A stretch of 64,000 bases of DNA from Myxococcota bacterium (GTDB taxonomy: Bacteria > Myxococcota_A > UBA9160 > UBA6930), in contig JANQOX010000025.1 of the NCBI GenBank assembly GCA_028285625.1, forward strand, positions 206,461-270,460. Direction: 5' to 3'. Shown piece after piece: positions 6,954-64,000 of this stretch (the first letter of the stretch is position 1; the number at the start of each line of letters is the position of its first letter). A model generated the notes under the pieces. That model saw only the letters and a list, made by a program, of their open reading frames with translations. It was not told where the DNA came from and made no database searches. The position numbers and the translations under genes were made by a program.

Positions 6954-7874
6954 GTGCTGCGCCGGTTCGTCCCGATCGCCGTGTTCGCCCTGGCTGCAGG
7001 CTGCGCCACGCCCGAGCCGCTGACGCAGCTGCACGCCTACGTCTGGGCCGCCCAAGAAGAGGTGCGTGTCTTCCTGTGCCGATGGCCCGATGGCGCGCGG
7101 GTCGGCGTGTCCCTGCCGCAGCAGGGGCCCGAAGCCATGCGCGAGGCCGCGGCCGCCGCCCTGGCCGCGTGGCAGCGGGTGGACCTGCCGATCGATCTCG
7201 TCGAAGAAGTGCCCGAGCGCGCGCAGATCGAGGTGCGGCTGGTAGACGGTGCCATCCGCCGGGACGACGGCCGCGCCGGCAGTGGCCGCGGTTTCGCCGA
7301 CTGCCGCGTCGGCGAGGGCGGCCCCGACCAGCTTCACGGAGCGCGCGTCGAAGTCGCCGTGCGCTCGGCTCCGGACGCGCGCGGCCACATCCACGAGCAC
7401 ACGCCCGAAGTCGTGGCCGGCACCGTGCTTCACGAACTCGGGCACGCGCTCGGCTACCAGGGTCACCCGCGCGGCGGGCGTGACGAGCCCATGGTTCGCG
7501 AGGCCGATGCACTGAGGCGACTGGGACGCCGCGTGCTGGCCGGCAAGCGCATCGACTCGCCCGAGGTTCGGGCGCTCTACGCGCGGCCGACCGGTGCGAC
7601 GCTCTTGCGGGCCCCGGTGTCGCGCTGGCGAACCGAGCCCGTGGACCAGCTCGCACCGCTCGCGCGTGCCGATGGGTTGGAGGGGCCGTTCGTGCGATCG
7701 GGCGACGCCTGGGGCCGCATCCTATGGCGCGGCGCCGCAGGACAGGAGCTCGGGATCTGGCTCCCCAACCTGCTCGAGGCCTACGATGACCCCACACGCA
7801 TCCTGCTGGTGCCCGACCCGGCGAGCCGCGAGCGCATCGAGCGCGGTGCCGGCCTGGGTTCAGCCGGGCCGTGA
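6954..7874 (+). CDS. Zinc metalloprotease lipoprotein (HExxH, metzincin-like)
   Basis: A GTG start at 6954 gives M-LRRFVPIAVFALAAGC (lipobox). Motif VLHELGHALGYQGH. The first ~227 codons of the track ORF (from 6273) are antisense to the previous gene and were rejected. Confidence 0.75.
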   Translation: MLRRFVPIAVFALAAGCATPEPLTQLHAYVWAAQEEVRVFLCRWPDGARVGVSLPQQGPEAMREAAAAALAAWQRVDLPIDLVEEVPERAQIEVRLVDGAIRRDDGRAGSGRGFADCRVGEGGPDQLHGARVEVAVRSAPDARGHIHEHTPEVVAGTVLHELGHALGYQGHPRGGRDEPMVREADALRRLGRRVLAGKRIDSPEVRALYARPTGATLLRAPVSRWRTEPVDQLAPLARADGLEGPFVRSGDAWGRILWRGAAGQELGIWLPNLLEAYDDPTRILLVPDPASRERIERGAGLGSAGP

Positions 7875-49465: not shown

Positions 49466-50839
49466 CTACCGGGTCGCGAGCGAGCCCAGGCGGGCAACGG
49501 CTGGGGGGCAGGCGAGGCCGGCGTCCAGGTCGTAATCCCCGGCGCCGTGGAGCACCTCGACGTTGCCGTCTGCAATGAGTCGGATCCGCTGGGCGCCCGC
49601 GCCGTTCACGGGCTGGTCGCCCTCGAGCCGGATGTCGCCGCCGGCCCGCACCACGAGGCCTTCGAAGTCGAGACCGCGTACCGGCACGAGTACGTCCGAA
49701 GCCCCGATCACCGTCACGCGTTCTCGTCCGTCGCCGCCTACCGGCTCGAGACCGACCACGGGCTGACCGGCTTTCACGACGATCGGCACCGTGCTCACGA
49801 AGGTGAGGCCGCGCATGCCGACGGGTCCGTTCGGGCTGACCTTCGTGTTCACGGCGGGGTTGTGCCAGCGAAGCGAAGCCGCCGAGAGACCATCGTCCGG
49901 CGCTTCGTAGAAGATCACCGTCGGCTGCTCGCCGGCGGGCTCGATGGCCGTGAGGTCGAAGAATGCGGTGCGGGCGAAGCTACGTCCCTGCGTCGCCTGT
50001 TCGGCACCCACGCCGTAGTAGACGCCATCGGGGGACGATCCCTCCGTATAGATGACATCGGCGGCGGCGCGTAGCTCGTCGAGGAGTGTGGCGTCGACCG
50101 GCCGGATGTCATCGAGTCTCGGGGCCTGTGATTCGGCGTCGGCCAAGGCCGCCGGGCGCACGTTGGCGAATCGTTCGACGGTGGGGCCGAAGATTCCGAA
50201 CGTGATCACCTGATCGGCCTCGAAGATCGATCCCTCCGCGGACCATGCCGTCTCGCGGATCTGCGGCGAGCCCGAGACGATCACGTCGCCGTTGGCGTGG
50301 ACGAGCCCGCCACGCAGTGCACCGCCGGTGCTGCCGTCGAGAAAGAGCCGCACCTCTCCGCCCGGGTCGAGCGAGATGAGGCCGTAGTTGCGCAGGTGCG
50401 CGACCGACGCGGCGGAGACCCTGACGCCATCGCGCCGTCCGCCGCGAAGCAGGGTCGGGACCACACGCGAGAGGCGAATGCGGTAGGCGTTGCCGACGGC
50501 GTCTTCCGGGAAGCCGGGCGATCCCGCGGCGACGAACTCGGAGCCGTCCGCGAACGCATCGCGCATGTCGTTCTCGTCGAACCAGCCGCGCGTGATTTCG
50601 AGCACGTCCTCGTCGCGCGCTCCGGCGGCCTGCGCCATCACGCGCACGGCGGCCTCGGGGTCGTCGTCACACAGCGCCTGCGCGCCCGCCAGCGCCGCCG
50701 CGCGGGACGCGGTGGCCAGGCGGCCGCGCTCGGCGAACAGCACGCCGGTATCGGTGACGAGGCCCAGCAGCAGTACGCCGAGCAGAAGCAGGAGTGCCGC
50801 GGAGACGGCGATGCTGCCGGTCTGGCGTCGGCGCAGCAT
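49466..50839 (-). CDS. tadG: TadG-like Flp-pilus assembly protein
   Basis: The start is MLRRRQTGS at 50839. TadE/G-like N-terminus GSIAVSAALLLLLGVLLLGLVTDTGVLFAERGRLATASRAAALAGA, followed by a large beta-rich domain. Confidence 0.7.
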   Translation of the reverse strand: MLRRRQTGSIAVSAALLLLLGVLLLGLVTDTGVLFAERGRLATASRAAALAGAQALCDDDPEAAVRVMAQAAGARDEDVLEITRGWFDENDMRDAFADGSEFVAAGSPGFPEDAVGNAYRIRLSRVVPTLLRGGRRDGVRVSAASVAHLRNYGLISLDPGGEVRLFLDGSTGGALRGGLVHANGDVIVSGSPQIRETAWSAEGSIFEADQVITFGIFGPTVERFANVRPAALADAESQAPRLDDIRPVDATLLDELRAAADVIYTEGSSPDGVYYGVGAEQATQGRSFARTAFFDLTAIEPAGEQPTVIFYEAPDDGLSAASLRWHNPAVNTKVSPNGPVGMRGLTFVSTVPIVVKAGQPVVGLEPVGGDGRERVTVIGASDVLVPVRGLDFEGLVVRAGGDIRLEGDQPVNGAGAQRIRLIADGNVEVLHGAGDYDLDAGLACPPAVARLGSLATR

Positions 50840-50862
50840 GGGGCGTCGGCAGCGCGAGGCGC

Positions 50863-51171
50863 TCACCTCAGCTGGCGCACCTGTTGCGAAGCGCTTGGTT
50901 GGACCTCGGGCTCCTCGAGCAGGGACTCGACGTAGCGTTCTTCGTAGACGCGGTTCGCGACCTCGCCCGGTAGCCCCTCGGCCGGCGTCGCGTCCTGGGC
51001 CCCGGACGGGTTCACGACCTGGGCTTGGAAGGCATCCCGGTAGGCGTCGCCGTAATCGTCGCTGATGTGCCGCTTCGGCCCTGCGCAGGCCAGCGCCAGG
51101 AGCGCGGCGCAGCCGAGCAGCGCACAGGTCGTTCGAGAGGCCGTTCGCGGTCTGGTGTGGTTCGGGATCAT
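50863..51171 (-). CDS. Small lipoprotein within the tad locus
   Basis: The ATG shares one base with the tadD stop (TGATG). Lipobox LLALAC. 102 aa. Confidence 0.6.
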   Translation of the reverse strand: MIPNHTRPRTASRTTCALLGCAALLALACAGPKRHISDDYGDAYRDAFQAQVVNPSGAQDATPAEGLPGEVANRVYEERYVESLLEEPEVQPSASQQVRQLR

Positions 51172-51947
51172 CAAGGGGTCTCCTCTCGGGGCTCGAGTCG
51201 TGCGAGGTTGCGGCGCGCCGGGGCGAAACGGGGGTCGAGCTCGACGGCGTCGCGATAGCGGGCTCGCGCGCGATCGGTGTCGCCGCGCAGTTCGAGAACC
51301 GCACCGAGGTCGTTCATCGCCGCGGCGAGCGGGCGGCCTTGGGACAGGACCCGCAGCGCTTCGTCTTCGCGCCCCAGCAGGGTCAGCGAAGCCGCCAGAT
51401 TGATGCGCGCCGGGGCGAAATCGGGATCGAGCGACAGGGCGCGCTCGAAGTGCTTGCGCGCGGTGGCAGGTTCTCCGGCCGCCAGTCGCGAGAAGCCCAG
51501 GTCGTTGTGGAACGCCGGACGCGCCGGATCGAGTGCGATCGCCCGCAGGTAGGCCGACTGCGCATCTTCGGCCCGGCCGAGCTGGTCGAGGGTGAGGCCG
51601 AGTCCATGGTGGGCGCGCGCATGGGAGGGGTCGGCGTCGACCAGCCGTGAGAAGGTGTCCTCGGCTTCTTCCAGCCGGCCTTCTTCGCGCAGTGAGATGG
51701 CGCGCAGGTGCTGGACTTCCGCGTCGTCGTCGGGAGCGCGTTCGAGCTGGACGAGGGCCACGTCGTGCAGGCCGCGCCGCACCAGCTCGCGCGCTAGCGA
51801 GACCACCTGGGCGTCGCTCGGGGCGTCGACCACCGGCACCTCCGGCTCGTTCGGGGTCGCGCACGCGAAGGTGAGCGCTGCGACGCATGCGGCGGTCGCG
51901 CCGCGCCACGCGCGGCTCGCAGGGTGTCGGGCTCGGACGCGTCTCAT
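51171..51947 (-). CDS. tadD: TPR-repeat lipoprotein, TadD-like
   Basis: Lipobox ALTFAC. At least five TPR-like repeats (AHHGLGLTLDQLGRAEDAQSAYLRAIALDP etc.). Confidence 0.75.
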   Translation of the reverse strand: MRRVRARHPASRAWRGATAACVAALTFACATPNEPEVPVVDAPSDAQVVSLARELVRRGLHDVALVQLERAPDDDAEVQHLRAISLREEGRLEEAEDTFSRLVDADPSHARAHHGLGLTLDQLGRAEDAQSAYLRAIALDPARPAFHNDLGFSRLAAGEPATARKHFERALSLDPDFAPARINLAASLTLLGREDEALRVLSQGRPLAAAMNDLGAVLELRGDTDRARARYRDAVELDPRFAPARRNLARLEPREETP

Positions 51948-52831
51948 TGGAATCGCTCCATCAGCCGGATCAGGCCAGGCCCCGCCACCACGATGAGCAG
52001 AGCGGGGAGGATGAACAGGATCATGGGGAAGGTGATGCGCACGGGGGTTCGCGCGCCCTTCTCCTGCGCCGCCTGGCGTCGCTCGGTCCGAAGCGCGGCG
52101 GCTTGCACGCGCAGTGCTTCGCTCACGTCGGTGCCGTAGCGCTGCGACTGCAGCAGCACCGTCACGACGGCGTCGACCGCACGGACCCCGCAGCGCTCGC
52201 GGAGGTGATCGAGCGCACGCTCCCGCGAGAGTCCCCCTCGAATCTCGCGCAGGGCGTGCCGCAGTTCGGCGGAGAAGACGGGTGCCACATGCTCGAGTTC
52301 GCCGCTGGCACGCTCCGCGGCCGACTCGAAGCCGAGCCCGCCTTCCATCGCCACCAGCACCAGGTCGAGCAGGTCAGGGAGCTCCTCGACGATGCGCGCC
52401 CGTCGGTGGTCGCGCATCAGGCGAACCACGATCGCCGGGCCCAGGTAGCCCACCGCGGCGAGCGCCAGCGCCCAGGCGAGCGCCTGGGAGCCCGCCGTCG
52501 GGATCATCGCCAGCGCGGGCAAGGCGAGGACGGCCGCGGTGAGCAAGCGTGCCCCGTAGAAGGCCGGGAGTGCATCGTCCTGGGCCCATCCAGCTTCGGC
52601 CAGCCGGGCGCGAGCCTCGCGCTGCTCTTGCGGATCCGAGGGGACGCCGGCGTTGCCGATGCGCGCGAGCGCGTCTCGCAACCCGCGATCCGGCGCAGCC
52701 CGGTCGCCGCTCAGTTCGTGAACCAGGTTGCGGCGCCGCAGGAAACGACGGACGACGGCATCGGCGGCCAGAATCGCGCTGGCGCCGCCGGCGAAGGCCA
52801 CGAACCCGAGTGCCAGGGTCGATGCACTCAT
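51944..52831 (-). CDS. tadC: Flp pilus assembly inner-membrane protein TadC (T2SS F family)
   Basis: T2SSF domain ELPDLLDLVLVAMEGGLGFESA...LLQSQRYGTDVSEALR. C-terminal TM pair. 4-nt overlaps on both sides. Confidence 0.85.
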   Translation of the reverse strand: MSASTLALGFVAFAGGASAILAADAVVRRFLRRRNLVHELSGDRAAPDRGLRDALARIGNAGVPSDPQEQREARARLAEAGWAQDDALPAFYGARLLTAAVLALPALAMIPTAGSQALAWALALAAVGYLGPAIVVRLMRDHRRARIVEELPDLLDLVLVAMEGGLGFESAAERASGELEHVAPVFSAELRHALREIRGGLSRERALDHLRERCGVRAVDAVVTVLLQSQRYGTDVSEALRVQAAALRTERRQAAQEKGARTPVRITFPMILFILPALLIVVAGPGLIRLMERFQ

Positions 52832-53748
52832 ACGCGTACCCGCGAGAGTGCACGCATGGCCATGAAGCCCACGCCCTCGAGCACGAGTGCTGCCAGCAGC
52901 AGGGCCCGGCCCGTGGGCGCCTCGAAGAGCGGCGCCACGTAGGCGGGGCGCAAGAGCGCGATGCCCACCATGAACACGAGCGGCAGGAGCGCCAGGACGA
53001 TTGCGGTGGCGCGTCCTTCAGCGGTGACCGCACGCACGTCGCGCCGAAACACCACGCGCTCACGCAGGGTGGCGGCGAGCCGCTCGAGGATGTGGGCCAG
53101 GTTGCCGCCGGTTTCACGCTGCAGCACCAGCGCGGCCACCAGGAAGCGCACCTCGGCCACGCCCGGGTAGCGTTCGGCCAGCCCGCGAACCGCCCGCTCG
53201 AAGGGCGCGCCCAGTCGGAACTCTTCCTCCACCCGTCGCAGCGCACGGCCCACCGGATCGGGCATGCGTTCCCCCGCTTCGCGCAGCGCGGCATCCATGG
53301 GCTGGCCCGAGCGGATCGCCCGCGCGACCACGTCGATCGCCTCGGGTAGCTGGGCCTGAAGGGCCTCTTCGCGGCGGCCGCGCCGCGCTCGAAGGGAGGC
53401 ACAGCCGCCGAGGGGCGTGGCGATGCCTGCCAGGAGCGCCCAGCCGATCGAGCCGGATAGGGCGAGCGCGATGGTACCCAGGGCGATGGAGAGCCCGCCG
53501 AGGGCGGCCAGGAAGCGGGAGGGAGCCATCGCGATCCCGGCGCCGTCGAGAAGTGTCGGCAGCGACAGCCACACGGCCAGCGTCTCGAGCGGCGGGGTGG
53601 CCGCAGGATCCGGTTCGTGCGCAAGTTGGGGGCGCAACGGCGCGAGCGCTTCGATCACCTGGGTGCGGCGGCGGCTGCGCAGGTCGGCACGCCACAGCCA
53701 CACCCCCAGGGCGAGCAGGGTCAGCGCCGTCACGGCCGCGACGATCAC
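52828..53748 (-). CDS. tadB: Flp pilus assembly inner-membrane protein TadB (T2SS F family)
   Basis: QLPEAIDVVARAIRSGQPMDAAL...LVLQRETGGNLAHILERLA. Confidence 0.85.
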   Translation of the reverse strand: MIVAAVTALTLLALGVWLWRADLRSRRRTQVIEALAPLRPQLAHEPDPAATPPLETLAVWLSLPTLLDGAGIAMAPSRFLAALGGLSIALGTIALALSGSIGWALLAGIATPLGGCASLRARRGRREEALQAQLPEAIDVVARAIRSGQPMDAALREAGERMPDPVGRALRRVEEEFRLGAPFERAVRGLAERYPGVAEVRFLVAALVLQRETGGNLAHILERLAATLRERVVFRRDVRAVTAEGRATAIVLALLPLVFMVGIALLRPAYVAPLFEAPTGRALLLAALVLEGVGFMAMRALSRVRV

Positions 53749-55109
53749 GGCGCCCGCCTCGGTGCCGATGCCTTCTCGAAGGCGAGCAGGCCGTCGGGCA
53801 GGGCGTGGCCGGTGGCGGCCAGCCGATCCTCGAAGCGCGAGGCCTCGCCCAGGCCGCGGAAGGTGCCGAACACCCGGCCCTCGTCGTCGACGCCGCGCTG
53901 CTCGAAGACGATCCGTTCTTCGAGGCGCGCGCGTTCGCCGTCCATCCCGACCATCTCCGAGATCGAGACGATGCGCCGGCTCCCGTCGGAGAAGCGTGCG
54001 AGCTGAACGACCACGTCGACGGCGCTGGCGATCAGGCGGCGGACGGCCTGCTCCGAGAACCCCGAGGTGCCCATGCTGGCCATCACCTCGATGCGCGAAA
54101 GGGCATCGCGTGGGTTGTTCGCGTGGACCGTGCTCATCGAGCCCGGGTGGCCCGTGTTCATCGCCTGCAGCATGTCCATGACCTCGGCGCCGCGGGCCTC
54201 GCCGACGATGATGCGATCCGGGCGCATGCGCAGACTGTTCTTCACCAGGTCCGAGAGCTGGACCTCGCCACGCCCTTCGAGGTTGGGCGGGCGAGACTCC
54301 AGCGTGACCACGTGGGGCTGGCGAAGCCGAAGCTCGGCGCTGTCCTCGATGGTGAGGATCCGCTCGGTCGGAGGGATGTAGTCGGAGAGCGCATTCAGCA
54401 GCGTGGTCTTGCCCGAGCCGGTGCCTCCCGAGATCAGCACGTTCAGCCGGGCCCCGACGGCGGCGGCGAGGTAGCGCTGCATCTCGTCGGTGAAGGCGCC
54501 CCCGTCGAGCAGGTCGTCGGCGCCGAGCGGGTCGCGCCCGAACTTGCGGATCGAGATGGCGGGGCCCCCGAGCGCGAGAGGCGGCAGGATCACGTTCACC
54601 CGCGAGCCGTCGGCGAGCCGCGCGTCGACCATGGGCGAGGCCTCATCCACGCGCCGGCCCACGGCCGCCACGATGCGGTCGATCACCTGGCGCAGGTGCG
54701 CCGCATCGCGGAACCGCACGTCGGTGCGGTGGAGGACGCCGGAGCGTTCGACGTAGACGTCGTCGGGCCCGTTCACGAGCACGTCCTGCACCTCGGGATC
54801 GCGAATCAACGTCTCGAGCGGACCGAGGCCGAGGACCTCGTCGACCAGCTCGCTCACCAGGCGCGCACGCTCGCCCCGGTTGAGCGGGACGTGGGTCTCG
54901 CTGGCGATCTGGACCAGCGCTTCGCGGACCTCGCGTTCGAGCGCTCCGCGGTCGCGCGGACCGGCGGCATCGAGATCGAGCGAGGCGACCAGGGCCTCGT
55001 GCACGCGATCCTTCAGCAGGTCGAACTCGCTGGTCGCGTCGAGGACCTGCGCGGCGGCCTCGGTGGGCAGGGCAGCGTCGCCACCCCGAAGACGTTCGGC
55101 GAGCCTCAT
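53745..55109 (-). CDS. cpaF: Flp pilus assembly ATPase CpaF/TadA
   Basis: ATG at 55109 overlaps the cpaE stop. LISGGTGSGKTTLLNAL (Walker A), RILTIEDSAEL, RMRPDRIIVGEARG, GHPGSMSTVHAN. Confidence 0.93.
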   Translation of the reverse strand: MRLAERLRGGDAALPTEAAAQVLDATSEFDLLKDRVHEALVASLDLDAAGPRDRGALEREVREALVQIASETHVPLNRGERARLVSELVDEVLGLGPLETLIRDPEVQDVLVNGPDDVYVERSGVLHRTDVRFRDAAHLRQVIDRIVAAVGRRVDEASPMVDARLADGSRVNVILPPLALGGPAISIRKFGRDPLGADDLLDGGAFTDEMQRYLAAAVGARLNVLISGGTGSGKTTLLNALSDYIPPTERILTIEDSAELRLRQPHVVTLESRPPNLEGRGEVQLSDLVKNSLRMRPDRIIVGEARGAEVMDMLQAMNTGHPGSMSTVHANNPRDALSRIEVMASMGTSGFSEQAVRRLIASAVDVVVQLARFSDGSRRIVSISEMVGMDGERARLEERIVFEQRGVDDEGRVFGTFRGLGEASRFEDRLAATGHALPDGLLAFEKASAPRRAP

Positions 55110-56254
55110 TGCCCGGTTCCGCCGAACAGCCGGCGCCACCACGCGGTGGCCTCGGGCTGGGCCTGTCCGAGCAGGTGGGCGGCGAGGGCGTCGATCGCGC
55201 GCGAGGCGTCCGCCTCGGCGTCGATCCGGCCGATCGGCCGGCGTTCGCGCGCCGCAGCTGCCCACAAAGAGCGGTCCTCGGCGATCTGCGCGACGGGCTC
55301 GTACCCGATGATGCGCTCGAGGTCAGCGGGCCGGATGTCGTCGCCGGCCGCAGTGCGCGTGAGCACGACCTCGACCGCTGCCGTCGCCCCGATCTCGTTC
55401 ACGAACTCGAGCGCGGCCTGGGCGCGGCGCAGGCTCGCCGGAGAGGGCGTCACCACCAGCAGGATCCGGTCGGCGGCCTCGAGCGCGCAGAGCACGGGAC
55501 GCGAGAAGTCGTGCGGCAGGTCGAGCACCAGATGGTCGAGGTGGGATCGCAGCGTCGCGAGCAGCGAGGCCAGCGGTCCTGCGCCCACGCCCTCGGCATC
55601 CTGAACGGCGCCTTCGCAGGTGGAGAAGCGGAAGCCGTCGCCCTCGTACCGCGCGAGCGTTGCGTCGAGCAGTTCGCGATCGAGTCGGTCGAGACGGCCG
55701 AGGAGCTCGTGGGGCCCGGCCGGGCAGGGGCCCGCGAGCCAGCTTCCCAAGCCGCCTACGTACAGGTCGAGATCGAGCAGGAGGACCTCGCCCCCGCTGC
55801 GCACGTGCAGCCGGTCGGCGAGGGCCGCGCAGAGGCTCGTCGAGCCCGCGCCACCCGAGGGCGCGAATACGGCCGTGACCGTGGCGCCCGACTGGCCCGT
55901 GACGTCGAGACAACGGTCGACCGCCGAGCGAAGCGCGCCCGCTGCGCCGTCGCGTGTGGCGAGGTCGCGTGCGCCGGCGCGAAACGCGGCGAGGACGACC
56001 TCGGTGGGGGCTTCGTCCGCGAGCGCGAGGATCGGGAGCTCCGGTGCGGCCTCGCGTAGCCGAGCGACCCAGCCGAGCGCGCGTTGGGCGTCGGGCGCGA
56101 GGTCGACCACCACGAGCTTCGCGCCGCCTTCGGCAACCCGGCCCAACGCCTGCTCGACCGTCTCGGCAGCCGCGAAGGGGCCCGCGTCGTTTCCGAGCTC
56201 GCCCATCAGCCAGCGCAGGCTCGCCTGCTTCTCGGAAAGGACGACCAGGCTCAT
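55106..56254 (-). CDS. cpaE: CpaE/TadZ-like protein (REC-like N-domain + MinD/ParA-like domain with degenerate P-loop)
   Basis: N-terminal receiver-like KLVVVDLAPD...PILALAD. At the P-loop position it reads VFAPSGGAGSTSL instead of KGGxGKT. The rest is colinear with MinD/ParA-like proteins (VLLLDLDL...LVLDLPH). Confidence 0.75.
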   Translation of the reverse strand: MSLVVLSEKQASLRWLMGELGNDAGPFAAAETVEQALGRVAEGGAKLVVVDLAPDAQRALGWVARLREAAPELPILALADEAPTEVVLAAFRAGARDLATRDGAAGALRSAVDRCLDVTGQSGATVTAVFAPSGGAGSTSLCAALADRLHVRSGGEVLLLDLDLYVGGLGSWLAGPCPAGPHELLGRLDRLDRELLDATLARYEGDGFRFSTCEGAVQDAEGVGAGPLASLLATLRSHLDHLVLDLPHDFSRPVLCALEAADRILLVVTPSPASLRRAQAALEFVNEIGATAAVEVVLTRTAAGDDIRPADLERIIGYEPVAQIAEDRSLWAAAARERRPIGRIDAEADASRAIDALAAHLLGQAQPEATAWWRRLFGGTGQ

Positions 56255-57651
56255 TCGGAGAACCCGAAGGGCCCGCTGAACTCGGGCGTGCCGGTGGCGC
56301 GGACGGGCTCGTCCTCGCGCGGCGGCGCCATCGTCCGGTTCAAGAGGAAGAAGTCGACGTCCGACACGTCACCCGCCCAGTCGTCGCCAGGCAGCGCCGG
56401 TTCGCGGTCGACGGCGCGCGCCAGTCGCGCGGTCACGGCGATCACCAGCTCGGTTTCGTCGGTGCGCGCCTCCTTGCGGGTGAAGAGCGTGCCCAGGCCA
56501 GGGATGTCGCCGAGGAAGGGCAGCCGACCATCCGCCAGCGAGTTCTCCTCCTGGAGCAGGCCCGCCATCACGAACGTCTGGCCGTCCTTCAGCTGCAGCG
56601 TGGCGGCCGCGCGGCGCGTGCGGACACCCGGGACCGCTACCCCGCCCGAGACGGTGCCGAGAGATTCGTCGGTGTTGCTCACCTCGGGCTCGACGCGCAG
56701 GCTGATCGTCTCGGGCGCGACCACGGTCGGCGTGAACCGCAGCAGCGTGCCGAACTCCTTGAACTCGATCGACGTCACGCCGTCGCGCACCGCCACCGGC
56801 ACCGCGAACTCGCCCCCGACCAGGAAGCTCGCCTGCTGGCCGCTCATCGAGACCAGGGTCGGGCTCGCCAGCAGCCGGGCGAAGCCCTGCTCGCGAAGCA
56901 GACTCAGCACCGAGAGGAAGTCGTCGTCGAAGGCGGCGATCTGGAAGGCGGACGCGAACGGCGTGAGCGCGGTGAGGGCCGACTGGATGATGGTGTCCTC
57001 GGCCGAGGTGGCCTCGCCGGAGACGTCGCCGGCCGGAATCACGCCCAGCGTGAACTCGTCACTGATCAAGAACGACAAGCCCATCCGCCGAAGGCCGGAC
57101 CGCGAGACCTCGGCGACCCGAACCTGGAGCTGCACCTGCTGATCGCCCCCGACGCGCATCAGGTTCGTGACCTGCGCGCCCAGGGCCTTGGCCACGGCGA
57201 GCACCCGCTGCTGGTGCTCCATGCTGGGCACCGTACCGTCGAGCAACACCCCGTCGCGCCCGGGCAGTACGCGGACATCGCCCTCCGGGACGAGTTCCTG
57301 GAGGCGTCGATCGATCGACGCCGCGAGGCCGTCGGGCAGGGAGACCTCGAGCTCATACACGTCCACTCGCGCTTCGCCGTGCCACAGGATCAGGTTCGTC
57401 GCGCCCACGCCGCCGCTGGCCGTGACCAGGATCTGGGTGGGGGTGAGCAGACTCACGTCGGCGATCGACGGGTCGGCCACGGACATGCGCGAGATCGGTG
57501 TGCTGGTGCGCAGCACCAACGACTTGCCGCGCTCGACCGAGAGCTGCTTGGGTGCCGCCGCATCCACCAGGTCGGCTGCGGACGGTCGCCAGGGCGTTGC
57601 CAGCAGCAGTCCCAGCACGAGCACGGCGGAGAGAATCGGTCGTGCGATCAT
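56251..57651 (-). CDS. cpaC: Flp pilus secretin CpaC/RcpA
   Basis: Signal peptide. Pilus N-terminal region (ISRMSVADPSIADV). Secretin core LASPTLVSMSGQQASFLVGGEFAVPV ... LPFLGDIPGLGTLF. Confidence 0.9.
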   Translation of the reverse strand: MIARPILSAVLVLGLLLATPWRPSAADLVDAAAPKQLSVERGKSLVLRTSTPISRMSVADPSIADVSLLTPTQILVTASGGVGATNLILWHGEARVDVYELEVSLPDGLAASIDRRLQELVPEGDVRVLPGRDGVLLDGTVPSMEHQQRVLAVAKALGAQVTNLMRVGGDQQVQLQVRVAEVSRSGLRRMGLSFLISDEFTLGVIPAGDVSGEATSAEDTIIQSALTALTPFASAFQIAAFDDDFLSVLSLLREQGFARLLASPTLVSMSGQQASFLVGGEFAVPVAVRDGVTSIEFKEFGTLLRFTPTVVAPETISLRVEPEVSNTDESLGTVSGGVAVPGVRTRRAAATLQLKDGQTFVMAGLLQEENSLADGRLPFLGDIPGLGTLFTRKEARTDETELVIAVTARLARAVDREPALPGDDWAGDVSDVDFFLLNRTMAPPREDEPVRATGTPEFSGPFGFSE

Positions 57652-58670
57652 TCGTAGAAGGTCCGTTCGCTGCGCCGTCCGCCACGGACGACCTCGACGC
57701 GCGAGGTGGCGCGCCGTTTGGTGAGCAGGTCGGTGAGCGCCTGGCCGCGCGTGGCCACCTGGCCGGTGTCGTCCTGGTTGCGACCCAAGAGCCGCAGCAG
57801 GCTGCGAGACGTCGCGTCGGTCGCGACGGCGAGCCGCTCGGCATCTTCGGGAGGCACGAGCAGGGTGACCCGCCGGGCGGGCTGGGGCCGGTCGACGCCG
57901 CCCTCGAAGGTCTGCTCGGTGGCGAGCACCTCGACGTCCTGCAGGATCAGCCGCGAGACCATGCGCGTGGCACTCACCTGGCCGGGAGCGCCGGGTGCCG
58001 TGTTGCCTCCGCTCGCGAAGGTGCTGAACGGAGAGGTGAGGATCACGTCCACGCGGTCGCCGGGTCGCAATACGCCCGCGATGCCATCGGTCTCGCGCAC
58101 TTCGATGGTGATGGCGCGCAGGCCCGGCGGAATGTCGTCGACCAGGGTGCGGTCGCGCTCCACCAGGGTCGATGCGCCGCTCTCCCGCGTGAAGGCCAGC
58201 TCTCGAGCGCCGATCGGGCCCTCGTCCGAGGGGTTGCGGACCAGCAGCGCAAAGCGCGCGCCTTCGGCGGCCGCGACGGACATGGCCTGCTCGGGTGTGG
58301 CCAGGATCGAGACGGGCAGGGCGCCCCCGCGCCGCGACGGGGCCTCGCCAACGGCATGCACCGTCACGTCCTCGAGCAGCAGTCGCGAGACGCGGTCGCC
58401 GTCGGCAGACGGAAGCTCCGAGGTGGCTACGACGTCCACGCGGTCGCCCGGAGACAGCGCGCCCCCGTGGCCGCCGACCCGCTCGATGGGCAGGGCCACG
58501 GCGCGCATGCCCACCGGAATCTCCCGCTCGACCGTCTCGGCGTCCTCGTCGGGCGGCGCTGCAGCCACGGGGGGCGTCGCCGTGTCGGACGGCCCGATTG
58601 CCACGCGCACGGCGACCAGCCCGACCAGCAGGGCCGCCAGCAATACGATCCAGGTGCGAGCGCTGGGCAT
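57648..58670 (-). CDS. cpaB: CpaB/RcpC family pilus assembly protein with duplicated RcpC-type module
   Basis: N-terminal TM segment. Module 1: IPVGMRAVALPIERVGG..LSPGDRVDVVATS...LLEDVTVHAVGE...TPEQAMSVAAAE. Module 2: IPPGLRAITIEVRETDGIAGVLRPGDRVDVILTS...ILQDVEVLATEQ...PPEDAERLAVATD. Confidence 0.8.
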   Translation of the reverse strand: MPSARTWIVLLAALLVGLVAVRVAIGPSDTATPPVAAAPPDEDAETVEREIPVGMRAVALPIERVGGHGGALSPGDRVDVVATSELPSADGDRVSRLLLEDVTVHAVGEAPSRRGGALPVSILATPEQAMSVAAAEGARFALLVRNPSDEGPIGARELAFTRESGASTLVERDRTLVDDIPPGLRAITIEVRETDGIAGVLRPGDRVDVILTSPFSTFASGGNTAPGAPGQVSATRMVSRLILQDVEVLATEQTFEGGVDRPQPARRVTLLVPPEDAERLAVATDATSRSLLRLLGRNQDDTGQVATRGQALTDLLTKRRATSRVEVVRGGRRSERTFYE

Positions 58671-58680
58671 GGAAGCGTCC

Positions 58681-59094
58681 TCATCGAAGCGGGACCACGG
58701 AGACCGCAGACAGCGACTGCGGGATCAAGGCGTCGGGCAGGTAGCCGACGAGGGGTTCGTAGGGCAGCCGCTCCACCGCGACGCGCAGACGGCGCGGAGC
58801 GGCGGCGGCCTGCGGCAGCTCTTCGACGACGATCGCGTCGGCCGGGAGATCGCCAATCCAGTACGACTCGCGTAGCGCCGTCCTCGCGAACTGCGCCGGG
58901 TCTTCGCCCAGCCAGTCGCGTGCGGTTCCGCCGGACTGCGCACCGGAGTCGACCGCCTGGACGAGCACGAGTCGCGTGGTGAGGAGCCAGCCGAACTCGA
59001 GCATTGCGAAGACCACGAGCAGCAGCGCGGGAAGCACGATCGCGAACTCGAGTGCCGCCGTGCCTGCGCGCCGTCGTCGATCGCGCCGCGTCAC
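58681..59094 (-). CDS. tadE: TadE-like pseudopilin
   Basis: GTG at 59094 overlaps the cpaA stop (GTGA). GTAALEFAIVLPALLLVVFAMLEFGWLL. Confidence 0.8.
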   Translation of the reverse strand: MTRRDRRRRAGTAALEFAIVLPALLLVVFAMLEFGWLLTTRLVLVQAVDSGAQSGGTARDWLGEDPAQFARTALRESYWIGDLPADAIVVEELPQAAAAPRRLRVAVERLPYEPLVGYLPDALIPQSLSAVSVVPLR

Positions 59095-59594
59095 CAGAGG
59101 TCTCCGAGCGCCAACCAGGCCGTGAACCCGGCGGCCAGGGCCACGGCGTAGGGCAGGGTGTGCGCCGTGGGCTCGGCGTTGGCGCGGCCCGCCTCTCCCG
59201 TCGCAAGCAGCGTCGCGAGGTCGCGAAACGGGCGCGCCGGATCGACCCTTCGGCGGCGAACCAGCGCGACGCCCAGGGCCAGCAGGGCTCCCGCCACTGC
59301 GGAGTAGGCGAAGACCGCGATCACCGAGGTCGTGCCCAACCAGGCGCCGAGTGCCGCGAGCAGCTTCACGTCGCCGCCGCCCATGCCACCCAGTGCGAAC
59401 GGCCCGATCAGCAGCAGCCCACCGACGACGAGGCCCGCGAGCGGCACGCCGACGGGTGTTCCCGCGAGCGCATGAAACGCCAACGCGGTGATCGCCGAGC
59501 AGGCGACCAGCACGTTCGGGATCCGCCGCGCCTTCAGGTCGGTATGGACCGCGACCGCCAGCGTGGCTGCGCACGCTGCCACGATCAGGCTCAC
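59091..59594 (-). CDS. cpaA: Prepilin peptidase CpaA/TadV (A24 family)
   Basis: HTDLKARRIPN and GMGGGDVKLLAALGAW (two catalytic Asp contexts). 167 aa, polytopic. Confidence 0.88.
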   Translation of the reverse strand: MSLIVAACAATLAVAVHTDLKARRIPNVLVACSAITALAFHALAGTPVGVPLAGLVVGGLLLIGPFALGGMGGGDVKLLAALGAWLGTTSVIAVFAYSAVAGALLALGVALVRRRRVDPARPFRDLATLLATGEAGRANAEPTAHTLPYAVALAAGFTAWLALGDLW

Positions 59595-59803
59595 CGGGTG
59601 GTCTGCTCGCTCGCGATCTGGTTCTCGGCGTCGTCGAGCCGGTCGGTGAGCGCGTCGAATACGTTCTCGATCCGGTCGCCGAACGTCCCGAGGGCCACGA
59701 TCAGCACCGCGCCGATCAGGCCGGCGATCAGCCCGTATTCGATCGCGGTCACGCCGCTCTCGTCGTCTCGAAGTCGTTGCAGGAGCTCACGGAGTCTTCG
59801 CAT
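59591..59803 (-). CDS. flp: Flp family type IVb pilin
   Basis: MRRLRELLQRLRDDESG/VTAIEYGLIAGLIGAVLIVAL: Flp leader plus the G/xTAIEYGLIA processing motif. GGAGAA lies 5 nt before the ATG at 59803. The stop overlaps the cpaA start. Confidence 0.9.
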   Translation of the reverse strand: MRRLRELLQRLRDDESGVTAIEYGLIAGLIGAVLIVALGTFGDRIENVFDALTDRLDDAENQIASEQTTR

Positions 59804-60131
59804 CGGGTTCTCCATCCTGTTTGGTGGTTCCGGCCGCGGGAGCGGCAGGCGAGTAGACCTCTCGCGCGAGAGGGCGCCCTCCCAGGAGCAGCACGACGGT
59901 CACCGGTTCCTGGGTCTCGGCCGTCTCGCGGTAGCGCGTCGCGACTTCACGCATCACGTCCCGGGCCTCGCCCGCGTGGGCCGGCTTCACCCGAATCCAG
60001 AGCTCGTGCTGCGGCCGCACCTCGAGGCTCGCGAGAGGCAGGTCGGACGTCCGCGCCTTCAGGTCGGGCGACTCCGCGAGCGAGGCGCTCGCGAGTCCGC
60101 ACGCGATCAGGACGATCCACGCTGCTCTCAT
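59787..60131 (-). CDS. Small secreted protein, function unknown
   Basis: The ATG overlaps the upstream stop (ATGA). Signal peptide MRAAWIVLIACGLASASLA. High GC3. The 3' end overlaps the flp start by 17 nt. Confidence 0.6.
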   Translation of the reverse strand: MRAAWIVLIACGLASASLAESPDLKARTSDLPLASLEVRPQHELWIRVKPAHAGEARDVMREVATRYRETAETQEPVTVVLLLGGRPLAREVYSPAAPAAGTTKQDGEPDAKTP

Positions 60132-60937
60132 GCCCGGCCCCTGGCACGTCGACGACGCACGAACGACCAGGCCAGCGCGGCGAGGCCGGCTTCGAAGCCC
60201 AGGCCGCAGGCGCGCCCGACGCCTTCCTTGTTGATGTGCCCACCGCTGCTGCACTGGGGGTCGGGGGTCGCGCCTCCGATGCCCCCGTCCCAGTCGATGC
60301 GGCCATCGTTGTCGTTGTCGATCTCGTCGTCGCACTGGGGCGACTCGTTGAATCCGATTGCGTTGAAGCAGCCGGGGTCGGCCGTGTCGACGAGGCCGTC
60401 GCCATCGTTGTCGACGCCGTCGTTGCACGCGCGCACCGGAAAGCTGAGCCCGGCGCCAGACGCCGTGGGCACCGCGGCGCCGGCCAGGTATTGCCCGTTG
60501 GCGATCACGCCGAAGCCCTGGACGCCGGTCGCGAACGTGATGTCGGCGATGTCGTCGGGCACGGCACCGAGCGCGAGCTGGAACGTGATCGTACCGAGCA
60601 CCGTCGGGCTGGTGATGGGGGCCGCGATGCCCTGGTCGGCGCCGTTGAAGGCATCGAGCTGGCCTGGGATCGTCTGGACCATCGGGCCGAACGCATCACC
60701 CTGCACCGGGGCCGGTGGCGTGTTGGTGTACGAGCCGGTCCAGGTGACCTTCGTCTCGTCCACGGCGAACGAGAAGTTGTAGGCCGCGAGATCCACCGTG
60801 CCGCCCTGCGGGTCGAGCACGACGTCTACGGTGAGGTCGCCGTCGGGGTTGTCGAGGAGAACCACCCAGGACGCTGCGGGCTGTGCCGCCAGGACCAGGG
60901 TGGCCGCTACGGTGAGAAGTCGAATAAGGGTGTGCAT
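60128..60937 (-). CDS. Secreted protein with CxDGxDNDxDG Ca-binding-type Cys repeats and a Cys-containing C-terminal TM/Arg-rich sorting-like tail
   Basis: Signal peptide MHTLIRLLTVAATLVLAAQPAAS. Repeats ACNDGVDNDGDGLVDTADPGC and QCDDEIDNDNDGRIDWD...DPQC. C-terminus RACGLGFEAGLAALAWSFVRRRRARG. Confidence 0.75.
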   Translation of the reverse strand: MHTLIRLLTVAATLVLAAQPAASWVVLLDNPDGDLTVDVVLDPQGGTVDLAAYNFSFAVDETKVTWTGSYTNTPPAPVQGDAFGPMVQTIPGQLDAFNGADQGIAAPITSPTVLGTITFQLALGAVPDDIADITFATGVQGFGVIANGQYLAGAAVPTASGAGLSFPVRACNDGVDNDGDGLVDTADPGCFNAIGFNESPQCDDEIDNDNDGRIDWDGGIGGATPDPQCSSGGHINKEGVGRACGLGFEAGLAALAWSFVRRRRARGRA

Positions 60938-62391
60938 CAGAACCAGGGCTCCGCGGTCAGCCATCGCGGCCGGAAGAGGAAGTAGTCGCCGAGGTCGACG
61001 AAACCGTCGCCGTTCATGTCGCGGTCTTCGTTTCCGGGCGAAGGCGCCTCGAGATAGCTCGAGGCGAAGTCGAAGAAGTCGGCGAGGTCGACGAAGCCAT
61101 CGTTGTTGAGGTCGGCGTCGGCCACGTTGCCGGTGCCGTCTCCATCGAAGTCCTCCTGACCGGGGTTCGGCGTGAAGAAGGCGTTGTCGGCGGAATCGGG
61201 GATGCCGTCTCCGTCCTGGTCCGGCGCGCCCGCCGGGAAGTACATGGTGAACCGCGGCGTGACACCCGGCCCCCAGAAGTCCTGGCCCGCCGCGGTGCAG
61301 CTTCCGCCGTCCACCGTGGTCGGGTTCCACAGCACGCCGAGGCTCGCGCCCCACGAGTTGTAGATCGCGCCGGTGGCGGGGTCGTCTTCGCAGCTGTCGG
61401 GGGCGAGCTCCTTGTACTCGGAGCCGTTGCCTTCGTCGACGGGCGCTCCCCCGCCGGCAACGCGCGCCACGACCGAGGCTTCGATCACCGCCGCATAGCC
61501 GGTTTCCGTACCGGCGCCTCCCCCGAAGGCGTCGCCACCGCCGATGTGGACGTTGCCCTCAGCGTCGAAGCCGAGGCTCGAGGCCGACAGCACGTTGCTG
61601 GCCAGCAGTGCGCCGTCCACGCCGTAGTCGAGCGGTGTCCCTGTGCCGAGCGCGTTGAAGACCTGTGCCGAGCTGAAGTAGCGGATCTCGCCGGTCTGGC
61701 CGGGCGGCGCAAAGCCGAGTCCGGTGACCAGATTGCCGAACGGATCGATCCCGATCGCGCCCGATGCACCTGGGATGTTCTGGATGAGCGCGCCGCCCGG
61801 ATCGTTCGGCACCGACGTGTCGATGGCGCCGATTCCCGAAATGCAGGGGATGCCCTGACCGCAGGACCAGAGCCCACCGGTGAGCACCAGCAGGTCGTTG
61901 CCGAGCCACTCGCCCTCCTGGTAGTTGATCGGGTACGCCTGTACGCCGGGCGCCGTATCGAGCACGGGCGGATTGGTGGTATCGAGCGCGCTGGTCGGAA
62001 TCACCAGCAGGTCCTGGGCGAAACCCAAGCCGAGCGCGATCTTCGTGCCATCGGGCGAGATCCGCACGAAGGCCGGGTCCATCACGCCCTGAGTCGTGCC
62101 GACCGGGATGAACGCGCTCGCGCCGTGGTTCTTCTGCAGGTAGAGCGTCTGATCCATGGCGACCAGCGACAGTCCGTCGACCGGGAAGTTGCCGATCTGC
62201 TCGCCCGCCGTCGGGGGAAACTGGTCGACGACGGCGACGAATCCGCTCTGGATCGTCGGGAACGACACCTCCTGGGTCGAGCCTTGCGCGGTTCCGTAGT
62301 CGTCGAAGTCGTCTGCGTGTGCGGTCGCGGCCAGCGCGAGCCCCACGATCGCGATCAAGAGTCGCAACGGGTTCCTCCTCGAACGTTGCAT
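60937..62391 (-). CDS. Secreted protein: beta-propeller-like N-region + thrombospondin-type-3 / dockerin-like Ca-binding repeats
   Basis: ATG at 62391 follows GGAGGAGG. Signal peptide LLIAIVGLALAATAHA. DQDGDGIPDSADN, DFDGDGTGNVADADLNNDGFVDLADFFDF, DRDMNGDGFVDLGDYFLF. Confidence 0.8.
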   Translation of the reverse strand: MQRSRRNPLRLLIAIVGLALAATAHADDFDDYGTAQGSTQEVSFPTIQSGFVAVVDQFPPTAGEQIGNFPVDGLSLVAMDQTLYLQKNHGASAFIPVGTTQGVMDPAFVRISPDGTKIALGLGFAQDLLVIPTSALDTTNPPVLDTAPGVQAYPINYQEGEWLGNDLLVLTGGLWSCGQGIPCISGIGAIDTSVPNDPGGALIQNIPGASGAIGIDPFGNLVTGLGFAPPGQTGEIRYFSSAQVFNALGTGTPLDYGVDGALLASNVLSASSLGFDAEGNVHIGGGDAFGGGAGTETGYAAVIEASVVARVAGGGAPVDEGNGSEYKELAPDSCEDDPATGAIYNSWGASLGVLWNPTTVDGGSCTAAGQDFWGPGVTPRFTMYFPAGAPDQDGDGIPDSADNAFFTPNPGQEDFDGDGTGNVADADLNNDGFVDLADFFDFASSYLEAPSPGNEDRDMNGDGFVDLGDYFLFRPRWLTAEPWF

Positions 62392-62434
62392 CTGCCACCT
62401 CCTCCCCAAGCTTGTCAACAAGAGGTCGCCGTGG

Positions 62435-62462
62435 GCGGGCCGCACCCGACGGTGCGGCCCGC
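62435..62462 (-). terminator. Perfect 12-bp GC-rich stem-loop just after the PEP-CTERM gene stop (terminator/attenuator candidate)
   Basis: The minus strand reads GCGGGCCGCACC-GUCG-GGUGCGGCCCGC, starting 19 nt after the stop at 62481. It is followed by CCACGGCGACCUCUUGUUG, so there is no clean U-tract. Confidence 0.5.
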
Positions 62463-62480
62463 TCACGGGTGGATCGGCCC

Positions 62481-63356
62481 TCAGTCGCGTCGGCTCCGGA
62501 GCCACACGACCGCCAGCGCTGCGAGGCCGAAGCCCAGCGCGGGCTCGGGCACTGCAGCGCCCGTGGCGGCGCTCGACACGACCACCGCGTCCAGCTCGAA
62601 ATTGAGCGACGTGCCCGCGTTGCCATCGTCGGCCACGCTGAATCGCACGTAGGCAACCTGGCTGAGGCCCGTGCCCGACAGGTCGAGCCAGGTCCCGCCG
62701 CCCGAGCCACCGAACGCCGCGACCGTCGAGGCGTAGTCGAGGCCGTCGAATGTGCCGAGGCTGCCCGAGCCCAGGAACGGCAAGCCGAAGTCGGCGCCCA
62801 CCGCCCCAGCCGGCTTCGAGGTGTCGAAGGGACCCGCGTTCAGCCAGAAGATGGACGGCAGGTCGAAAAGGATCGGCGCGCCTCCGTTGAGGGCCACGAA
62901 GGTCTGGCCGTCCTCGCTCACCTCCACCACGGCGGAGTCGAGCCCGAAGGCGAAGGCGGGGCTGAAGTTCTGGCCCGTGGGAAACGACGCGTCGGCGAGT
63001 CCCACGTTCGCCACCACGCCCAGCTCGAGCCCGGCGCCCACCACCGCGAAGTCGCGGAGCTGGATCGTGAGGTGGCCGCCCTCGCCGATGGACACCAGCT
63101 CGTCGGCCTCGAACCCGGGGTTGAAGGGCGACAGGACATTGTCGAAGCCCGCGTCCTCACCCACGATCCCACTCGGCAGCCGCTTCGCCGAATCGGGGTT
63201 GGTGAGTCCGGCCGCTGCCGTCGTCCCCGGGTCGTAGCTCACGACCCGCTTGCCGAAGGACAGCGCGTTCGCATTGCCCCCAATCAGCAGCCCGGCGGCC
63301 GCCATCGTCCAAACCAACGCCTGCGCGCAATTCACCCGTCGCAATAGCCTGTGCAT
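62481..63356 (-). CDS. PEP-CTERM sorting-signal surface protein (first gene after the cobalamin riboswitch)
   Basis: Signal peptide MHRLLRRVNCAQALVWTMAAAGLLIGGNANA. Canonical C-terminus AAVPEPALGFGLAALAVVWLRSRRD. The central region is beta-rich with no domain I can name. Confidence 0.85.
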   Translation of the reverse strand: MHRLLRRVNCAQALVWTMAAAGLLIGGNANALSFGKRVVSYDPGTTAAAGLTNPDSAKRLPSGIVGEDAGFDNVLSPFNPGFEADELVSIGEGGHLTIQLRDFAVVGAGLELGVVANVGLADASFPTGQNFSPAFAFGLDSAVVEVSEDGQTFVALNGGAPILFDLPSIFWLNAGPFDTSKPAGAVGADFGLPFLGSGSLGTFDGLDYASTVAAFGGSGGGTWLDLSGTGLSQVAYVRFSVADDGNAGTSLNFELDAVVVSSAATGAAVPEPALGFGLAALAVVWLRSRRD

Positions 63357-63501
63357 CGTGTTCCCCGACGGGACCGGGCCTGCATAGCGAAACGACGGCC
63401 GTGTAACGGTCGCCATCTGCATCATCCACGGGCCGCGGCCCTGTCTTTCTCGTTCAGATAGTGAAGAGGCTTCCCTTTACGCGAGGGGGCCGCCTCGATT
63501 C

Positions 63502-63696
63502 GGTAGGCAGGTCTTCTGGCTTACGACGGTCGGGACGGACCTTCCCGGTTCACAGGCCGAGTCCAGTGGTCCTACGATGTCCCTCCCCCGGCCCGTGGGC
63601 CGGCGAAGACTCCGGTTCCTCCAAGGAGAATCGGTGTCCGGTCGCACACAGCGGCGCGTCCACGGCGGATTCTCACCGCCTTCCCTGACACCTACC
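63502..63696 (-). promoter_or_regulatory. Cobalamin (AdoCbl-type) riboswitch aptamer
   Basis: The minus strand reads GGTAGG(P1)-TGTC-AGGGAAG-GCGGTGAGAATCCGCC-GTGGACGCGCCGCTGT ... GACCACTGG...CCGGGAAGGTC ... AAGCCAGAAGACCTGCC-TACC(P1'). All conserved core blocks and the B12 box are present. It lies 145 nt upstream of the ATG at 63356. Confidence 0.88.
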
Positions 63697-63703
63697 GCGC
63701 GAC

Positions 63704-63732
63704 AGGAAATCACACGGCCTGCAAACCGTCAA
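63704..63732 (-). promoter_or_regulatory. Candidate sigma-70 promoter for the riboswitch leader
   Basis: The minus strand has TTGACG (-35, 63732-63727), a 17-nt spacer and TTTCCT (weak -10, 63709-63704). This would place the TSS at about the P1 5' end. Confidence 0.3.
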
Positions 63733-63766
63733 CGCTGAGCGGCCGCTGCAGGGGATGTCGCGCCGA

Positions 63767-64000
63767 CTAGCTGCCCGCGAGCACGCCGTCGAGCGCCTCG
63801 CGAAGTCGCTCGACGCTGGCCGCGCGGGCGTTGTGCCCCATCAGCCCGATCCGCCAGATCTGGCCTGCCAGCTTGCCGAGGCCCCCACCCACTTCGATGC
63901 CGTGGTCGTCGAGCAGGCGCCGCCGGACGTCGGCCTCGCCGACCCGGCCGACGGTGTCGGGGAGGCGGAGCGTCGTGAGGGGAGGCAGGCGAACCGCCGC
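63767..64000 (-). CDS. Class V aminotransferase (serine-pyruvate / alanine-glyoxylate type), C-terminal fragment; 5' end outside window
   Basis: Hand translation of the minus strand ends ...DDHGIEVGGGLGKLAGQIWRIGLMGHNARAASVERLREALDGVLAGS*, the typical AGXT-family C-terminus (G.GLG.L.G...RIGLMG). Confidence 0.75.
   Translation of the reverse strand, partial: AAVRLPPLTTLRLPDTVGRVGEADVRRRLLDDHGIEVGGGLGKLAGQIWRIGLMGHNARAASVERLREALDGVLAGS

Follow-up and report, generated by a model that had tools for sequence, protein, structure and literature searches.

A cobalamin riboswitch ahead of a predicted BtuH-like surface protein gene and a Tad pilus locus in a Myxococcota bacterium

We wondered why a cobalamin riboswitch should precede a gene for a secreted protein that heads a pilus locus. 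The question arose from a stretch of 64,000 nucleotides (nt) of a Myxococcota bacterium (assembly GCA_028285625.1, contig JANQOX010000025.1, positions 206,461 to 270,460), hereafter the window, in which the riboswitch is followed on the same strand by four genes, here called G1 to G4, and by a Tad pilus (tad) locus. An earlier reading of the letters alone (the sequence-only reading) had proposed either a new kind of surface protein capturing corrinoids or the use of B12 as a cue for surface adhesion. We consider it probable that the riboswitch is an OFF switch inducing a corrinoid-capture surface module under B12 scarcity, a reading that the comparative evidence supports well computationally. 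The features on which the argument turns are the following.

63489..63710, minus strand: cobalamin riboswitch aptamer RF00174 (covariance-model match and motif positions)
63357..63488, minus strand: leader/expression platform (motif reading, folding)
62481..63356, minus strand: G1, predicted 291-amino-acid (aa) secreted protein with a PEP-CTERM-type tail (open reading frame (ORF), AF2 (AlphaFold2) model, profile searches)

Scanning the whole window with cmscan and Rfam 15 returned one RF00174 match and one tRNA, and nothing else. The RF00174 match (minus strand, 63710-63489) covers model positions 1-189 without truncation and scores 51.8 bits, above the gathering threshold of 31.5 (E 5e-10). 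The blocks AGGGAAG, GGUGAGAAUCC and CCACUGG...CCGGGAAGGUC all align to the RF00174 consensus, the B12 box AGCCAGAAGACCUGCC occupies 63521-63506 of the minus strand, and helix P1 is formed by GGUAGG (63696-63691) pairing with CCUACC (63507-63502). The presence of all conserved blocks and of a closing P1, as claimed from the sequence alone, is thereby confirmed. About 51 nt inserted into peripheral P6 lower the bit score; posterior probability is low nowhere else in the aptamer. Extensions of the P6 region are typical of adenosylcobalamin (AdoCbl)-class aptamers.

The ATG of G1 (63356) lies 145 nt downstream of P1 on the strand of the aptamer. The encoded protein has a Sec-type signal (..GGNANA/LS) and a C-terminal tail, AVPEPALGFGLAALAVVWLRSRRD, in which a PEP motif, a hydrophobic helix and a basic cluster can be read directly. 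The earlier description of a secreted 291-aa protein with a PEP-CTERM tail at this distance agrees with the ORF, though the Pfam tail model is silent. No Pfam or NCBIfam domain was found in G1. The 291-aa start is absent from public records; a 311-aa version (P0001) is present on a 10-kb Logan contig (L001) identical to the window. Relatives of about 290 aa are numerous and come chiefly from metagenome-assembled genomes (MAGs) of Planctomycetota and Verrucomicrobiota: among 1.84 billion representatives searched with HMMER, 1,105 clusters (50% identity) were found at E <=1e-3 and 691 at <=1e-10. The Pfam PEP-CTERM model matches 25 of 30 members of the family.

Does the riboswitch recur beside relatives of G1? 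Scanning one genome per GTDB species yielded 69 G1-family loci in Planctomycetota and Verrucomicrobiota (here the PVC loci, after the Planctomycetes-Verrucomicrobia-Chlamydiae group). At Rfam gathering thresholds, a same-strand RF00174 precedes the G1 homolog in 65 of them, and the contigs of the other four give no more than 420 nt of upstream sequence. The linkage of riboswitch and G1 is near-universal in the family. The regulated unit in these loci comprises two to three genes, encoding the G1-family protein, a prepilin-type DUF1559/H-X9-DG protein (about 60 loci) and often a third protein which, when present, carries a dockerin and a PEP-CTERM tail. The genes flanking these units (sigma-70, shikimate dehydrogenase, BioD-like, MoxR/DUF58/TgpA) were considered as partners and look unrelated. 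Relatives of G2, G3 and G4 were found in none of the 69 loci, and we therefore place these three genes outside the universal core.

Two further observations concern the same loci. In L002 (3508-3739, 4725-4930) and L063 (3226-3435, 4447-4641) no riboswitch is shared: the DUF1559-like gene has one cobalamin riboswitch and the G1-family gene another. In the Pirellulales-type loci L011, L013, L034 and L062 an Acido-Lenti-1 RNA follows the G1-family gene at a distance of about 0.9-1 kb, and in L047 it stands just ahead of the riboswitch:

L011 6835-6879; L013 6706-6750; L034 6824-6868; L062 6952-6996; L047 9-55: Acido-Lenti-1 RNA motif (RF01687)

What might a protein under such control do? The AF2 model of G1 is a beta-sandwich with a predicted local distance difference test score (pLDDT) of 92. 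Foldseek returned a single PDB match with E <1e-3, 8blw_B, and placed chains of 7biz at ranks 8 and 12; the other matches were discoidin and CBM32 jelly-rolls. 8blw_B is BtuG1, a protein extended at its C-terminus by a BtuH-like domain of about 250 residues that binds B12 (PMC10404256), and 7BIZ is BtuH2 with bound B12 (PMC8941943). The same two proteins were reached by profile. A profile of PVC and delta-type G1 members (A3), searched against 177,635 distinct PDB sequences, matched BtuG1 (8blw_B, E 7.8e-7) and BtuH2 (7biz_A, E 1.1e-3), the next match having an E-value of 1.4, and its alignment to BtuG1 lies in the BtuH-like H-domain (chain residues 410-517). A delta-only profile (A4) gave the same two matches (E 9.2e-5 for BtuG1, 0.02 for BtuH2). 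G1 and BtuH have in common the motifs S-hGxxGG-h-T-h-F, D-F-x-V-x-G-N, V-x-V-S-x-D...W and Y/F-V-K/R-I. The alignment to BtuH takes in the motifs best conserved within the G1 family. BtuH2 contacts B12 through Gln333, Asn399, Phe401, His476, Tyr510, Trp511, Trp577 and Leu578, with Asn399 touching the phosphate of the nucleotide loop (PMC8941943). In profile A3 the invariant Asn of the G1 family (N117 in G1) aligns with Asn399, given a chain-to-protein offset of 100 inferred from the residue numbers in PMC8941943; Phe401 and Gln333 are not conserved in the family.

By sequence profile, G1 is distantly homologous to the B12-binding domain of BtuH. Homologs of BtuH have been reported from gut Bacteroidetes and three Firmicutes (PMC8941943), and we read the G1 family as a BtuH branch, widespread and so far undescribed, whose anchoring and partners are new. 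The capture proposal of the sequence-only reading is thus strengthened by the linkage, by the BtuH homology and by a DUF4465-containing cassette described below, but its 'new kind' of protein, offered as an analogy only, gives way to predicted membership of a known family. G1 was also considered as a DUF4465/BtuJ protein, and this found no support: neither G1 nor 30 relatives matched PF14717, and hhalign gave a probability of 11%.

We then asked whether the genes behind G1 belong to the same module.

60937..62391, minus strand: G2, predicted 484-aa secreted beta-propeller of seven-bladed type; TSP3 repeats; dockerin-like pair of Ca loops at the C-terminus
60128..60937, minus strand: G3, 269 aa, predicted secreted protein; acidic double-disulfide repeat; C-terminal tail hydrophobic and basic
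59787..60131, minus strand: G4, 114 aa with an N-terminal hydrophobic segment

The model of G2 (pLDDT 88.6) consists of a propeller followed by TSP3 repeats and the dockerin-like pair of Ca loops. BtuG had been named earlier as an analogue. G2 shares the propeller architecture of BtuG, but its top 50 Foldseek matches are generic propellers (G-beta, Ycf48, Drp35) and hold no BtuG chain, and a similarity specific to BtuG was not supported. G3, whose start overlaps the G2 stop (ATGA), matches NF033662 with 41.5 bits at a cut-off of 41; its family (fam 2) recurs in L072, L073 and L078. Homologs of G4 were found in L079, L080, L083-L085, L089, L092, L098 and L110.

About 60 relatives of G2 at roughly 45% identity occur in Sorangium, Desulfobulbus, Desulfosarcina, Syntrophobacteraceae and MAGs. 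Six of eight G2-family loci carry a same-strand RF00174 ahead of the gene string. A metagenome scan with a G2 alignment added 59 loci, which were searched with an nhmmer aptamer model built from Rfam matches; this model recovered 34/34 held-out loci, and Rfam agreed with all its calls in eight loci. Where at least 1 kb of upstream sequence was available, a same-strand cobalamin aptamer preceded the G2 homolog in 31 of 39 metagenome loci, and in 23 of 25 at >=35% identity. Delta-type cassettes hold G1 paralogs (hmmsearch E 5e-20 to 1e-7), often directly adjoining the G2 homolog, as well as G3- and G4-like proteins, most of them with the common tail VPVPAAVWLLGSGLLGLVGxRRR. Since these cassettes combine all four kinds of gene, G1-G2-G3-G4 in the window can be regarded as a compact version of a conserved cassette.

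The neighborhood of G2 loci also includes members of the B12 regulon, namely nrdAB in Sorangium (L071), where a second riboswitch precedes it, nrdD in L074, preceded by a divergent riboswitch and accompanied by a split metH, and metE in L077. L078 opens with two RF00174 aptamers and one cyclic di-GMP (c-di-GMP)-I aptamer, followed by a DUF4465 protein (Pfam E 1.6e-49) with a C-terminal sorting tail like those of the cassette proteins, and the cassette contains a G2 relative. DUF4465 is the domain of BtuJ1 and BtuJ2, which were shown experimentally to bind B12 (bioRxiv 10.1101/2025.08.21.671476). Two loci of this set stand out by their arrangement. In L074, directly behind RF00174, a protein (P0177, 5001-6629) fuses a prepilin N-terminus, GFTLIELLVV, to a G2-type propeller. 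In L106 (1021-4327), and also in L107, a stretch of 3.3 kb holds four cobalamin riboswitches, two per strand, and a G2 relative follows about 5.5 kb downstream.

Beyond G4 the string continues as follows, with a stable hairpin lying between its first two genes.

62429..62468, minus strand: stable hairpin in the G1-G2 spacer, 12-bp perfect GC-rich stem plus 5 bp, followed by CGACCUCUUGUUG
59591..59803, minus strand: Flp pilin (PF04964, E 1.1e-15)
51944..59582, minus strand: TadV prepilin peptidase, TadE, RcpC/CpaB, secretin CpaC, CpaE-like, CpaF ATPase, TadB, TadC (Pfam)
49466..51304, minus strand: TadG-like protein with a weak Tad domain (PF13400, E 3.6e-4, below cut-off), probable end of the string

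The gene order is G1, an 89-nt spacer, G2, G3, G4, Flp, A24 peptidase, TadE, RcpC/CpaB, secretin, CpaE-like, CpaF, TadB, TadC and TadG-like. The Pfam set includes T2SSE and two T2SSF domains and the tad locus is complete; together with the Pfam and NCBIfam matches and the G2 model, this bears out the earlier account of a propeller or Ca-binding protein, a Cys-repeat protein and a complete tad locus. Elsewhere in the window, a DUF4388-DnaJ protein is encoded at 7860-9296 (minus strand); with the relatives of G2 in Sorangium and Desulfobacterota, it hints at a high-GC, Myxococcota-like source.

How the riboswitch acts is most legible in syntenic relatives. L079 and L083 (G2 at 45-47% identity) keep the order of the window, with riboswitch, G1, G2, G4, Flp, TadV and the remaining tad genes. 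In L079 a near-consensus promoter (TTGACA-17-TATACT) stands just ahead of the aptamer, and aptamer and G1 are separated by an intrinsic terminator (15 bp, T7 tail), the only strong one found on the plus strand as far as TadC. L083 has two 12-bp terminators after the aptamer. Because canonical terminators separate aptamer and G1, we regard the element in these two loci as a transcriptional OFF switch.

We propose that the window element, a cobalamin and probably AdoCbl-type riboswitch, likewise acts as an OFF switch. With little corrinoid in the cell, the leader would let RNA polymerase or ribosomes pass and G1 would be made. The protein would be exported by Sec and sorted to the cell surface by its PEP-CTERM-type tail, where its BtuH-like beta-sandwich may capture environmental corrinoids. 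G2, as a propeller-dockerin protein, G3 and G4 would be accessory parts of the same conserved cassette, and flp-tad would probably be expressed at a lower level by read-through.

In the leader of the window the hairpin CGAGG-CGGCCC-CCUCG (63497-63482) is followed by a GC hairpin around 63440-63428, then by an imperfect hairpin with UUUCGCUAU behind it, around 63395-63375, and last by a Shine-Dalgarno (SD)-like GGGGAA (63366-63361) ahead of the G1 ATG. The stability of its fold does not exceed that of shuffled sequences (z-score -0.28), and inspection of the leader by eye revealed no convincing L5-L13 kissing-loop complementarity. Candidate platforms are a non-canonical terminator made of the imperfect hairpin and UUUCGCUAU, Rho-dependent termination, or a long-range helix between the SD and the C-rich tract that follows P1. 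A gene on the same strand (63765-64000) ends 55 nt upstream of the aptamer; its product is a fragment without a Pfam match whose C-terminus we take to resemble class V aminotransferases. As no promoter was detected, the riboswitch could be reached by read-through from this gene.

Several results weigh against the proposed OFF switch and capture module. A scan of the window leader for sigma-70 promoters and terminators left the minus strand empty; small hairpins without a canonical terminator were also what the sequence-only reading had described. Modelled accessibility of the SD is nearly equal in bound-like and free-like folds, with no clear SD-sequestering helix. The PEP-CTERM models PF07589 and TIGR02595 do not match G1 of the window even at E up to 10. 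The Foldseek TM-scores of the G1 model are low (0.32-0.33), and because of this the structural likeness alone would be weak. Neither single G1 sequences nor a PVC-only profile matched any PDB sequence, BtuH being reached only with delta-type members, and the confident alignment is confined to the N-terminal half, so that BtuH2 His476, Tyr510, Trp511 and Trp577 cannot be mapped. No btuB or btuFCD was seen among the neighbors of the inspected loci or in the gene string of the window. Finally, control of G2 through tad is uncertain, given the very strong hairpin after G1.

This hairpin is also the chief argument for a narrower view, which we consider somewhat unlikely, namely that the riboswitch controls G1 alone, the hairpin terminates transcription, and G2-G4 with tad make up an operon of their own, adjacent by accident or through a loose functional tie only. 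The 89-nt spacer folds at -54.6 kcal/mol around the 12+5 bp stem, which is followed by a U-containing tract, and a comparable hairpin follows G1 in L079/L090. G2 has a strong SD of its own, GGGGAGGAGGUGG, and its relatives often stand directly behind their own RF00174. Yet G1 and G2 stay paired across many lineages (19 of 59 loci), and elsewhere G2 has its own linkage to B12 riboswitches. The terminator scan did not pick up the spacer hairpin, which is without a proper U-tract, and no promoter-like site was found ahead of G2 in the minus-strand scan. We regard the hairpin as a candidate partial terminator or RNA-stabilising element; its stability and its counterpart in L079/L090 suggest that G1 is made in excess and that G2-tad is expressed by read-through or separately.

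The second proposal of the sequence-only reading, B12 as a cue for attachment, appears doubtful. It holds that the riboswitch gates the Tad pilus and G1-G4 as adhesins, so that starved cells attach to surfaces or to B12-producing partners. Riboswitch, G1, G2, G4, flp and tad are collinear in the window, L079 and L083, L079 being without a strong internal terminator, and the junctions from G2 to TadC all overlap or measure <=10 nt. The dockerin and TSP3 modules of G2 are typical of adhesive proteins, and in related cassettes RF00174 forms tandems with c-di-GMP-I riboswitches. Set against this, 65 PVC loci have no pilus machinery and only the pilin-like DUF1559 protein, while tad genes lie beside G2 in only five of 22 loci with enough downstream sequence and are restricted by lineage. 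The homology of G1 to a B12-binding domain, the occurrence of DUF4465 in a cassette and the strong hairpin dividing G1 from the remaining genes also count against it. An attachment cue would be compatible with the capture module preferred here rather than exclusive of it.

The recurrence of type IV filament parts (DUF1559, Tad and the P0177 fusion) motivated a more speculative extension, which we hold to be unlikely as it stands. Corrinoid capture might be built around a type IV filament instead of a TonB-dependent receptor, with binders (G1, DUF4465, G2) displayed on or handed to a fibre whose retraction or pseudopilus action brings B12 across the outer layers. The fibre would be the Tad pilus in the lineage of the window and a DUF1559 pseudopilin in Planctomycetota and Verrucomicrobiota, and AdoCbl riboswitches would control the whole system, joined in relatives by c-di-GMP riboswitches. 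Very improbable, finally, is capture of something other than complete corrinoids, such as cobalt, cobinamide precursors or another tetrapyrrole: cobalamin riboswitches do control cobalt transporters, for example in B12 producers, G2 and G3 are rich in acidic repeats of Ca-binding type and the BtuH2 contact set is mapped only in part, but the sole solved homologs bind B12, the conserved Asn corresponds to the residue that touches the phosphate of the nucleotide loop and the co-occurrence of DUF4465 points to corrinoids.

The c-di-GMP elements deserve separate mention. Ahead of relatives of the G1/G2 cassette, RF00174 occurs in tandem with a c-di-GMP-I riboswitch (or its GGC/UAU variants) in seven loci:

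L075 1128-1544; L076 9057-9578; L078 161-1115; L085 1206-1542; L089 1483-1968; L098 314-676; L106 3929-4327: tandem riboswitches

Tandems of AdoCbl and c-di-GMP-I riboswitches have been described as 'NOT A AND B' gates in Desulfobacca acetoxidans, where the genes were not characterised, the AdoCbl element was predicted to be an OFF switch and a link between pili and B12, which would suit an attachment cue, was speculated upon (Sherlock et al. 2022, PMC9481103). The heterotypic tandem is far more recurrent among the cassette relatives than the 2-3 cases counted in that work, and these relatives give the logic gates a probable gene content. The earlier statement that nothing of the kind had been described was mostly right, except for these tandems, reported without gene function; full-text searches found no literature linking PEP-CTERM or DUF1559 proteins to cobalamin riboswitches. 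A response-regulator GGDEF-EAL protein for c-di-GMP turnover, encoded at 22075-23835 of the window (minus strand), may be relevant to the c-di-GMP-gated relatives.

Few microbes make B12 and most need it, so that scavenging shapes communities. The surface capture proteins BtuG, BtuH and BtuJ have so far been characterised almost only in gut Bacteroides. The G1 family is under near-obligate cobalamin-riboswitch control in Planctomycetota and Verrucomicrobiota of soil, freshwater and sea and in Myxococcota- and Desulfobacterota-like bacteria. Its partners are unlike those of Bacteroides, being pilin-like proteins, dockerin proteins and Tad pili, with no adjacent TonB-dependent transporter seen. 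The pairing of riboswitch and surface protein in many unrelated environmental bacteria points to an undescribed B12-scavenging surface system, and the family offers testable candidates for B12 acquisition in phyla whose outer-membrane step is obscure.

How does this predicted system compare with those already known? The leader belongs to the same aptamer family as that of E. coli btuB and is conserved block for block, but the target there is a TonB-dependent transporter and here a predicted surface binder. The platform of L079 and L083 consists of intrinsic terminators, whereas the window leader has no canonical one. With the tandem of D. acetoxidans the cassette relatives have the riboswitch arrangement in common, and the window itself has a cobalamin aptamer alone. 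BtuJ proteins are secreted jelly-roll B12 binders that also occur outside Bacteroidota, and one heads the related cassette of L078 behind RF00174. As a secreted propeller beside a BtuH-like G1, G2 echoes the fusion of propeller and BtuH in BtuG1 (PMC10404256), and differs from BtuG, which in Bacteroides serves as a seven-bladed propeller lid on BtuB, in its TSP3 and dockerin modules and in having no BtuB partner. The closest counterpart is BtuH. G1 resembles it as a predicted surface accessory protein with a homologous beta-sandwich domain and a gene under a cobalamin riboswitch, at an identity below the reach of pairwise searches. In Bacteroidota the gene for BtuH neighbors btuB/btuFCD, and its product is a lipoprotein whose N-terminal domains are of PKD or propeller type, whereas G1 is a single domain with a Sec signal and a PEP-CTERM-type tail and has no transporter genes nearby; its partners are DUF1559 pilin-like proteins in the PVC loci and propeller-dockerin proteins and Tad pili in the lineage of the window.

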